From the NCBI RefSeq assembly GCF_006345805.1, contig NC_042998.1:33790001-33854000 (forward strand): 64,000 nucleotides of DNA, written 5' to 3'. A model generated the notes under the pieces. The model made no database searches. It had not been told where the DNA came from and saw only the letters and a program-made list of their open reading frames with translations. The stretch comes from Octopus sinensis (lineage: Eukaryota). Positions 330 to 556 of the stretch are shown here, in pieces. Position numbers and translations under genes: made by a program. The stretch's first letter is position 1; each line of letters opens with the position of its first letter.

Positions 330-556
330 TCATGCATATATGGGTACAGGACACCACAAAAAAAAAACGTAGAACACAACGAGAAACGAAAACATAAAAC
401 AAAACAAGGAAACGGACTTTTTTTAACAACGAAAAAACAGAGTACAAGACATACAACACAAGGAACACTCCCCTTCTTCAGCTGCCCATGTTTCGACTTA
501 TTGCGTGTTTCGAAAGTAAGGGCAGGCCACAACTACTTTGAAACAGTCCTTCCCCC
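330..556 (-). mobile_element. Short PLE-end-like repeat carrying a rearranged hammerhead
   Basis: Shares ATGGGTACAGGAC end with copies near 5050, 55587 and 57190; abuts TA-rich microsatellite. Confidence 0.6.
470..531 (-). ncRNA. Non-circularly permuted hammerhead-like ribozyme (U16.1 mutated to G)
   Basis: Minus: ugug-G-C-cugccc-uuac-uuuc-GAAA-cacg-16 nt-gggcag-CUGAAGA-A-gggg; stems covary with the 55712-55772 copy. Confidence 0.65.

Follow-up and report, generated by a model that had tools for sequence, protein, structure and literature searches.

Eckert et al. (2023; PMC10085705) described hammerhead ribozymes of the permuted S-G-C order from metatranscriptomes, and in the text of that report known organisms are without such RNAs, except for one bacterial GCS candidate. 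Type-SGC ribozymes with a linking helix equivalent to the one discussed below cleave in vitro, and the same text treats the CUGAnGA block (block C) as uninterrupted, stating that known alignments lack insertions longer than one or two nucleotides there (PMC10085705). Non-LTR retrozymes, as presented in the main accounts of Cervera and de la Pena (2020; PMC7229834) and Li et al. (2026; bioRxiv 10.64898/2026.07.22.740005), are non-coding, low-GC tandem repeats that carry one type I hammerhead per unit of ~220-350 bp, in genomes with Penelope-like elements. Hammerheads also lie near the 3' end of EN+ Neptune-like Penelope-like elements, in pLTRs for which the pertinent sections of Craig et al. 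(2021; PMC8557442) describe partial tandems, inverted truncated copies, and microsatellite neighbours. In the pistol-resembling pseudoknot hammerhead, according to the portions of Zhan et al. (2024; PMC11300833) that deal with its fold, an extra helix named IV is the pseudoknot stem that replaces helix II, and A9-G12 and G10.1-C11.1 form one short stem with no junction between them.

The repeat considered here occurs in a 64,000-nucleotide stretch of the Octopus sinensis genome, which we call the window. The site at 340..556 on the minus strand is a mutated, 5'-truncated copy of subfamily A of a non-coding repeat, and we think it quite likely that the intact repeat RNA is a self-cleaving S-G-C hammerhead with a predicted four-way junction at A9/G10.1, mobilised into microsatellites by Penelope-like enzymes. 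With the type-SGC ribozyme HRIMA-1, as described by Eckert et al. (PMC10085705), it shares the core nucleotides, the S-G-C order, a short stem I-to-II linker, and a helix that connects stems I and II at their distal ends. Unlike the type-SGC RNAs of that description, its stem II 5' strand is predicted upstream, detached from CUGAnGA and with stems IV and V located there, and it resides in an animal genome at thousands of copies. Covariation, RNAalifold, and energies all point away from the intact block C of the type-SGC class. Like the published non-LTR retrozymes (PMC7229834; bioRxiv 10.64898/2026.07.22.740005) it is a non-coding, low-GC tandem repeat in which each unit has one predicted hammerhead, and Penelope-like elements are present in the same genome, the octopus repeat being known from DNA sequence; it differs from these accounts in its ~790-840-bp unit and in its non-circular permutation. 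Thus the octopus RNA may work like a type-SGC hammerhead in a non-LTR retrozyme, while departing from the former in its predicted split block and from the latter in not being of type I. The near-3' position, partial tandems, inverted truncated copies, and microsatellite neighbours recall the pLTR hammerheads, whereas the autonomous families of this genome, judged by eye, have cores that are small and in canonical order, with a stem III that is palindromic, in place of the S-G-C motif. An extra helix IV and a pseudoknotted fold are the points of likeness to the RNA of Zhan et al.

The host genome measures 2.72 Gb and is rich in microsatellites. That the window motif is not a chance occurrence follows from the pattern CGAAA-N24-32-CTGANGAAGGG, which has 7,919 genome matches compared with 16 for its reversed control. 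A variant pattern with another base after the core gave 1,804 matches (401 in the control), and the motif at the element's end gave 3,200 (0 in the control). A pairing descriptor found 116 core matches in loci L001-L250, overlapping loci being counted more than once, and 0 in shuffled versions of them. The 237 extracted matches formed 15 clusters of at least three copies, two of these consisting of truncated copies, with a further 41 matches in smaller clusters. The unit is without an ORF and is often arranged in tandem, with a spacing of 789-838 bp in seven loci; among 30 end-anchored loci, seven had tandem ends and seven had inverted ends. No RT/EN match was found within any tandem unit read, such matches lying only in neighbouring elements.

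Elsewhere, stems I and III occurred together in 0 of the 138 metagenome and viral pattern matches listed (120 and 18 loci, respectively). An Rfam scan of the window contained no hammerhead among the 150 matches listed of 201, and an Rfam covariance scan of eight family loci gave 0 at the gathering score. The subfamily F sequence is present in 20 sequencing runs from four organisms and eight studies, all as contigs and none listed as RNA. Four of these runs aligned to the domain gave no joints or end clusters, which contigs cannot provide as a record of RNA ends. In runs X1 and X2 the L241 unit is represented by single contigs of 869 and 846 nt that cover the subfamily F domain with no differences; their lengths are near one unit, and that they might derive from RNA is a guess.

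To follow the structure across subfamilies we used an unfitted MAFFT alignment of 33 copies, 34 having been hand-picked to span the subfamilies and one then excluded, as the script could locate no start of stem IV in it. C3, U4, G5, A6, G8, and A9 are invariant in these copies, which were selected by that core. U16.1 lay outside the selection criteria, and 32 of the 33 rows have its pair with A15.1; no row has G at position 17, which is always A, C, or U. At the level of sequence, then, the family carries the hammerhead core CUGAnGA, GAAA, and UH, in an S-G-C block order that is a non-circular permutation. Across six helices, 88.5% of 1,010 cells are paired, compared with 75.7% after shuffling and 41-47% when the strands are slid, and both sides have changed in 21 of the 31 pairs. 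By helix, the paired fraction is 90.9% in stem IV, 94.7% in V, 95.2% in II, 70.4% in X, 90.9% in III, and 92.3% in I. The original prediction had proposed that structure was conserved across subfamilies over sequence, and this is borne out by compensatory change in stems III and I, with at least 10 and at least 8 Watson-Crick pair-type changes on the tree; stem II as it was drawn there fares differently, as discussed below. The corresponding minima for stems IV, V, and the upstream stem II are 3, 5, and 3, and stem IV changed on two separate branches, from C-G to A-U in subfamily B and from U-A to G-C in subfamily F. Where one subfamily has C for A directly after A9, it has G at the partner position. 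Together with the copy number, this pattern indicates that an abundant, strongly covarying hammerhead-like RNA is real.

From 5' to 3', the proposed fold would comprise the 5' strand of stem IV, hairpin V, the stem II 5' strand, the first strand of helix X, the 3' strand of stem III, the U-H cut, the post-cut strand of stem I, the second strand of stem II, GAAA, the other stem III strand, the second strand of X, the other stem I strand, CUGAnGA, and the closing strand of IV. An upstream strand complements the strand before GAAA, and helix X begins directly after it, its 3' side being the strand just 5' of stem I. Hairpin V runs up to the base adjoining the upstream stem II strand. Immediately 5' of the hairpin lies a pyrimidine tract whose partners are the purines that follow CUGAnGA, and this pairing makes up stem IV. 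The predicted junction has no unpaired bases, passing from A9 to IV, from IV to V, from V to G10.1, and from C11.1 to G12. In the predicted stacking, the A9-G12 core would carry stem II, stems IV and V would form a second stack, and the RNA ends would exit through stem IV. Helix X and a linker of 2-5 nt between the post-cut stem I strand and stem II would tie stem I to stem II, as happens in type-SGC ribozymes. RNAalifold alone returns IV, V, and the upstream II, and folds of single sequences contain IV and V for the majority of intact copies, at z-scores of -0.7 to -3.6 (+0.25 for the truncated window copy). Competing nested folds also appear in single-sequence prediction, as is expected for a pseudoknot. 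In all 13 clusters helix X has a duplex energy between -3.6 and -11.8 kcal/mol; its lower paired fraction in the alignment partly reflects a register offset in subfamilies B and F. An automatic parse recovered IV, V, and II in nine of 13 subfamily clusters, two others having a weak IV and two being irregular or misparsed. The subfamilies with an irregular stem IV (L237, L480, L483; L481, L482) carry either additional U's immediately following A9 or a U inside the stem, and they constitute natural tests of junction tolerance. The AG before stem II was considered as a splice acceptor and rejected because its position covaries within stem V.

Insertion ends provide a separate view of the same site. 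The first 100 end-motif matches on contig C1 yielded 97 distinct queries, 96 of which aligned to natural full-domain references. Relative to the predicted cut, 23 of the 96 5' breakpoints lie at 0..+21, compared with three at -60..-1 and 13 at +22..+119 (binomial P 8e-11 and 2e-9; 0 of 5000 scan permutations). The start falls exactly at 0, within a two-base microhomology, in three copies, and at +5 in L486, a partial tandem. By a loose pattern, 21 of the 23 peak copies abut a microsatellite or an inverted copy; two peak copies have an identical junction and may not be independent. A TA repeat downstream of 73 of the 97 copies was set aside as evidence because the element's own tail can match it. 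The peak at the predicted bond fits cleavage in vivo, and its hard edge is compatible with a reverse transcriptase that either reached the 5' terminus left by cleavage or halted where RNA had been ligated. Because 49 of the 96 copies extend upstream past the predicted cut, cleavage would have to be partial or reversed by ligation. In the mechanism that we propose, transcripts would be cut only in part; the cut RNAs would yield short insertions beginning at the cut site, and longer and tandem insertions would come from RNAs left uncut or religated.

Which fold is active bears on how unusual this RNA would be. The original prediction had formed stem II from the purines after CUGAnGA and the strand before GAAA, largely through G-U pairs, and on that account the RNA would be a plain type-SGC hammerhead with an extra A, in which cleavage is limited by an off state made up of IV, V, and the upstream II. 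We regard this as unlikely but not far-fetched. The helix is paired in 91.7% of cells, the text of Eckert et al. (PMC10085705) acknowledges one- or two-nucleotide insertions beside the core, the canonical-order repeat in L093 has one extra A at that point, and the reading of about half of the copies through the cut fits regulation. However, the helix is rich in G-U, its duplex energy of 0 to -1.5 kcal/mol or worse compares with -4.6 to -5.4 kcal/mol for the upstream II, and it must displace two stronger helices; moreover, its fourth pair is broken in seven of 33 rows. Its one two-sided change falls on the same branch as all three two-sided changes of the upstream II, and the two folds are instead separated by energy, by the independent covariation of IV and V, and by the position of helix X, which directly follows the upstream strand, just where type-SGC ribozymes have the required linking helix relative to stem II. 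Since the upstream pyrimidine tract is the better partner, and a covarying one, for the purines that follow CUGAnGA, and since the strand before GAAA covaries with the upstream strand, the G-U-rich stem is probably not a conserved pairing. We infer that the upstream strand is probably the true stem II, with IV and V meeting it between A9 and G10.1; an on/off switch between both folds is possible.

A different question is whether the structure cleaves at all. It may be a hammerhead-derived, non-catalytic element such as a promoter, an RT-binding site, or a packaging signal, in which case the breakpoint peak would reflect where transcription starts or where RT stops, and a transcription start could indeed be the main alternative source of the hard edge. 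This explanation, which we consider rather improbable, draws on the fact that cleavage activity is a prediction from sequence, on the degenerate cores of the autonomous Penelope-like families in this genome, and on the transcription starts that pLTRs hold according to the relevant part of Craig et al. (PMC8557442). It accounts poorly for the retention of U16.1 and a non-G position 17 while the stems change, and the edge of the peak coincides with the predicted scissile bond, whereas a stalled RT should leave its mark at the helix 3' side. Assembly of a canonical-order hammerhead in trans, from blocks of neighbouring tandem units, seems very improbable: tandem units do exist, and some animal hammerheads work as dimers, as the published discussion of retrozymes mentions (PMC7229834), but stem III is not palindromic, the partner blocks would be separated by ~800 nt, and a single unit is enough to close stems IV and X. 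We retain a self-cleaving S-G-C hammerhead with the A9/G10.1 junction as the likely reading of the intact repeat.

It is fairly likely, in our estimation, that this is a natural hammerhead beyond the six published permutations, with a multiply pseudoknotted core and a perfect four-way junction at A9/G10.1, one that functions in vivo and has been maintained in many retrozyme-like subfamilies at thousands of copies in an animal genome. The openly accessible main texts searched contained no report of this architecture or of an animal type-SGC ribozyme; the supplementary alignments of Eckert et al. could bear on novelty. If the reading is correct, a non-circularly permuted ribozyme would be placed in the genome of a known organism. 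The predicted junction would also split the CUGAnGA block and thereby break the assumption, found in the text of Eckert et al. (PMC10085705), that it is uninterruptible, and standard hammerhead searches would miss a whole class in animal genomes. A9/G10.1 would then be a natural core insertion point for engineering. The breakpoint peak suggests a general readout of ribozyme cleavage from insertion ends, one that bears on the role of hammerheads in Penelope-type transposition.

The window copy itself preserves much of this structure in a damaged form. Its letters from 531 to 470 on the minus strand are as first reported, and the RNA structure reaches ~80-90 nt farther upstream than the 5' coordinate of the original prediction. 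On the minus strand, the predicted true stem II 5' strand lies at 548..552, upstream of those coordinates and with G10.1 at 552, followed by the 5' strand of helix X, predicted to link stems I and II, at 540..546 and by the stem III 3' strand with the cleavage triplet at 526..531, where the cut is predicted between 526 and 525. The post-cut stem I strand occupies 520..525, and block G occupies 504..516, with the stem II 3' strand at 516-512, GAAA at 511-508, and a stem III strand at 508-504. The helix X 3' strand (488..494) precedes 475..487, which contains a stem I strand (487-482) and the CUGAAGA core (481-475). The strand at 470..474, first taken for stem II, is probably the 3' strand of stem IV; truncation near 556 cost this copy its upstream partner as well as most of stem V. 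A microsatellite-like tail runs on below 340, and a ~250-bp tandem repeat of another element lies directly upstream of the copy, at window positions 560-1200. In an alignment of 30 close copies, the best-scoring of 43 matches with 40 of 2,872 candidates scored, U16.1 is present in 29, and the G at 527 and a C-to-U change at 515, in the strand before GAAA, are both private to the window copy. Position 17 is C in 16 of these copies and U in 14. The expectation that the consensus would read GUC at 528-526 thus agrees with the family majority of GUC/GUU, and the suggestion that this copy is probably dead holds as well, its putative hammerhead core being broken by U16.1G.

A full-length RT/GIY-YIG element ending in the motif had been anticipated; none was found, the motif being absent from the element's own 3' UTR in all 52 and 42 ORF-bearing loci (one common to both sets, all from the best-scoring ORF families). 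The RNA model matched two of the 52, both split from the ORF by a microsatellite or other repeats, and among the 42 further loci it matched one of those two again and two truncated neighbours. We treat the repeat as non-autonomous for this reason, and infer that the mobilising enzyme is likely that of a Penelope-like element. The genome holds young Neptune-like elements, called by the clade features in the relevant sections of Craig et al. (PMC8557442), with open frames of 782-784 codons that encode RT, a CX4CXXC linker, and GIY-YIG. By eye, the 3' UTRs of autonomous families (L091-L093, L098, L253, L419) contain small, canonical-order, hammerhead-like degenerate cores with a CCGG palindrome as stem III, one of them having U3-A8 in place of C3-G8. 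A different repeat (L093 near 6519 and L110 near 146, both minus strand, and L228) has a canonical-order minimal hammerhead with a palindromic stem III and one extra A between A9 and G10.1. At 23579-24615 (plus strand) the window also includes RT and endonuclease sequence, frameshifted and fragmentary, from a young Neptune-like family that has many genome copies at ~95% identity over the part searched. A decayed endonuclease-end fragment of another Penelope-like family, at 54295-55103 (plus strand), is not continuous with the 55.7-kb copy described below. Two long near-perfect inverted repeats, at 33974-34151 and 34343-34498, both have weak microRNA-hairpin scores below gathering.

The other copies in the window, all on the minus strand, largely match what was first noted about them. 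The copy at 55712-55772 has the block order of 531-470 with different sequences in stems I and III, CUGAUGA-A is kept in the copy at 5165-5199, and all three copies lie upstream of a common end motif (340-352, 55587-55599, and 5051-5063, the last with one mismatch). The 55.7-kb copy, of subfamily B, has a complete domain at 55711..55830, with predicted stem IV at 55830-55825 and 55716-55711, stem V at 55824-55817 and 55798-55791, stem II at 55790-55786 and 55755-55751, and the core at 55723-55717. It too is damaged, by G8A in that core and by small deletions in helix X. The third copy (5051..5199, subfamily D) starts ~19 nt past the predicted cut, inside the breakpoint peak, and all three copies with core blocks look dead from their sequences. 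A fourth, at 57186..57275, is a 3'-end fragment without the ribozyme. The near full-length subfamily B unit extends over 55587..56290, its 5' boundary being approximate. A splice-donor-like motif near the unit start is kept in subfamilies A and B (window 56256-56263, minus strand; L011, L030, L032, L050) and recalls the Penelope 5' intron.
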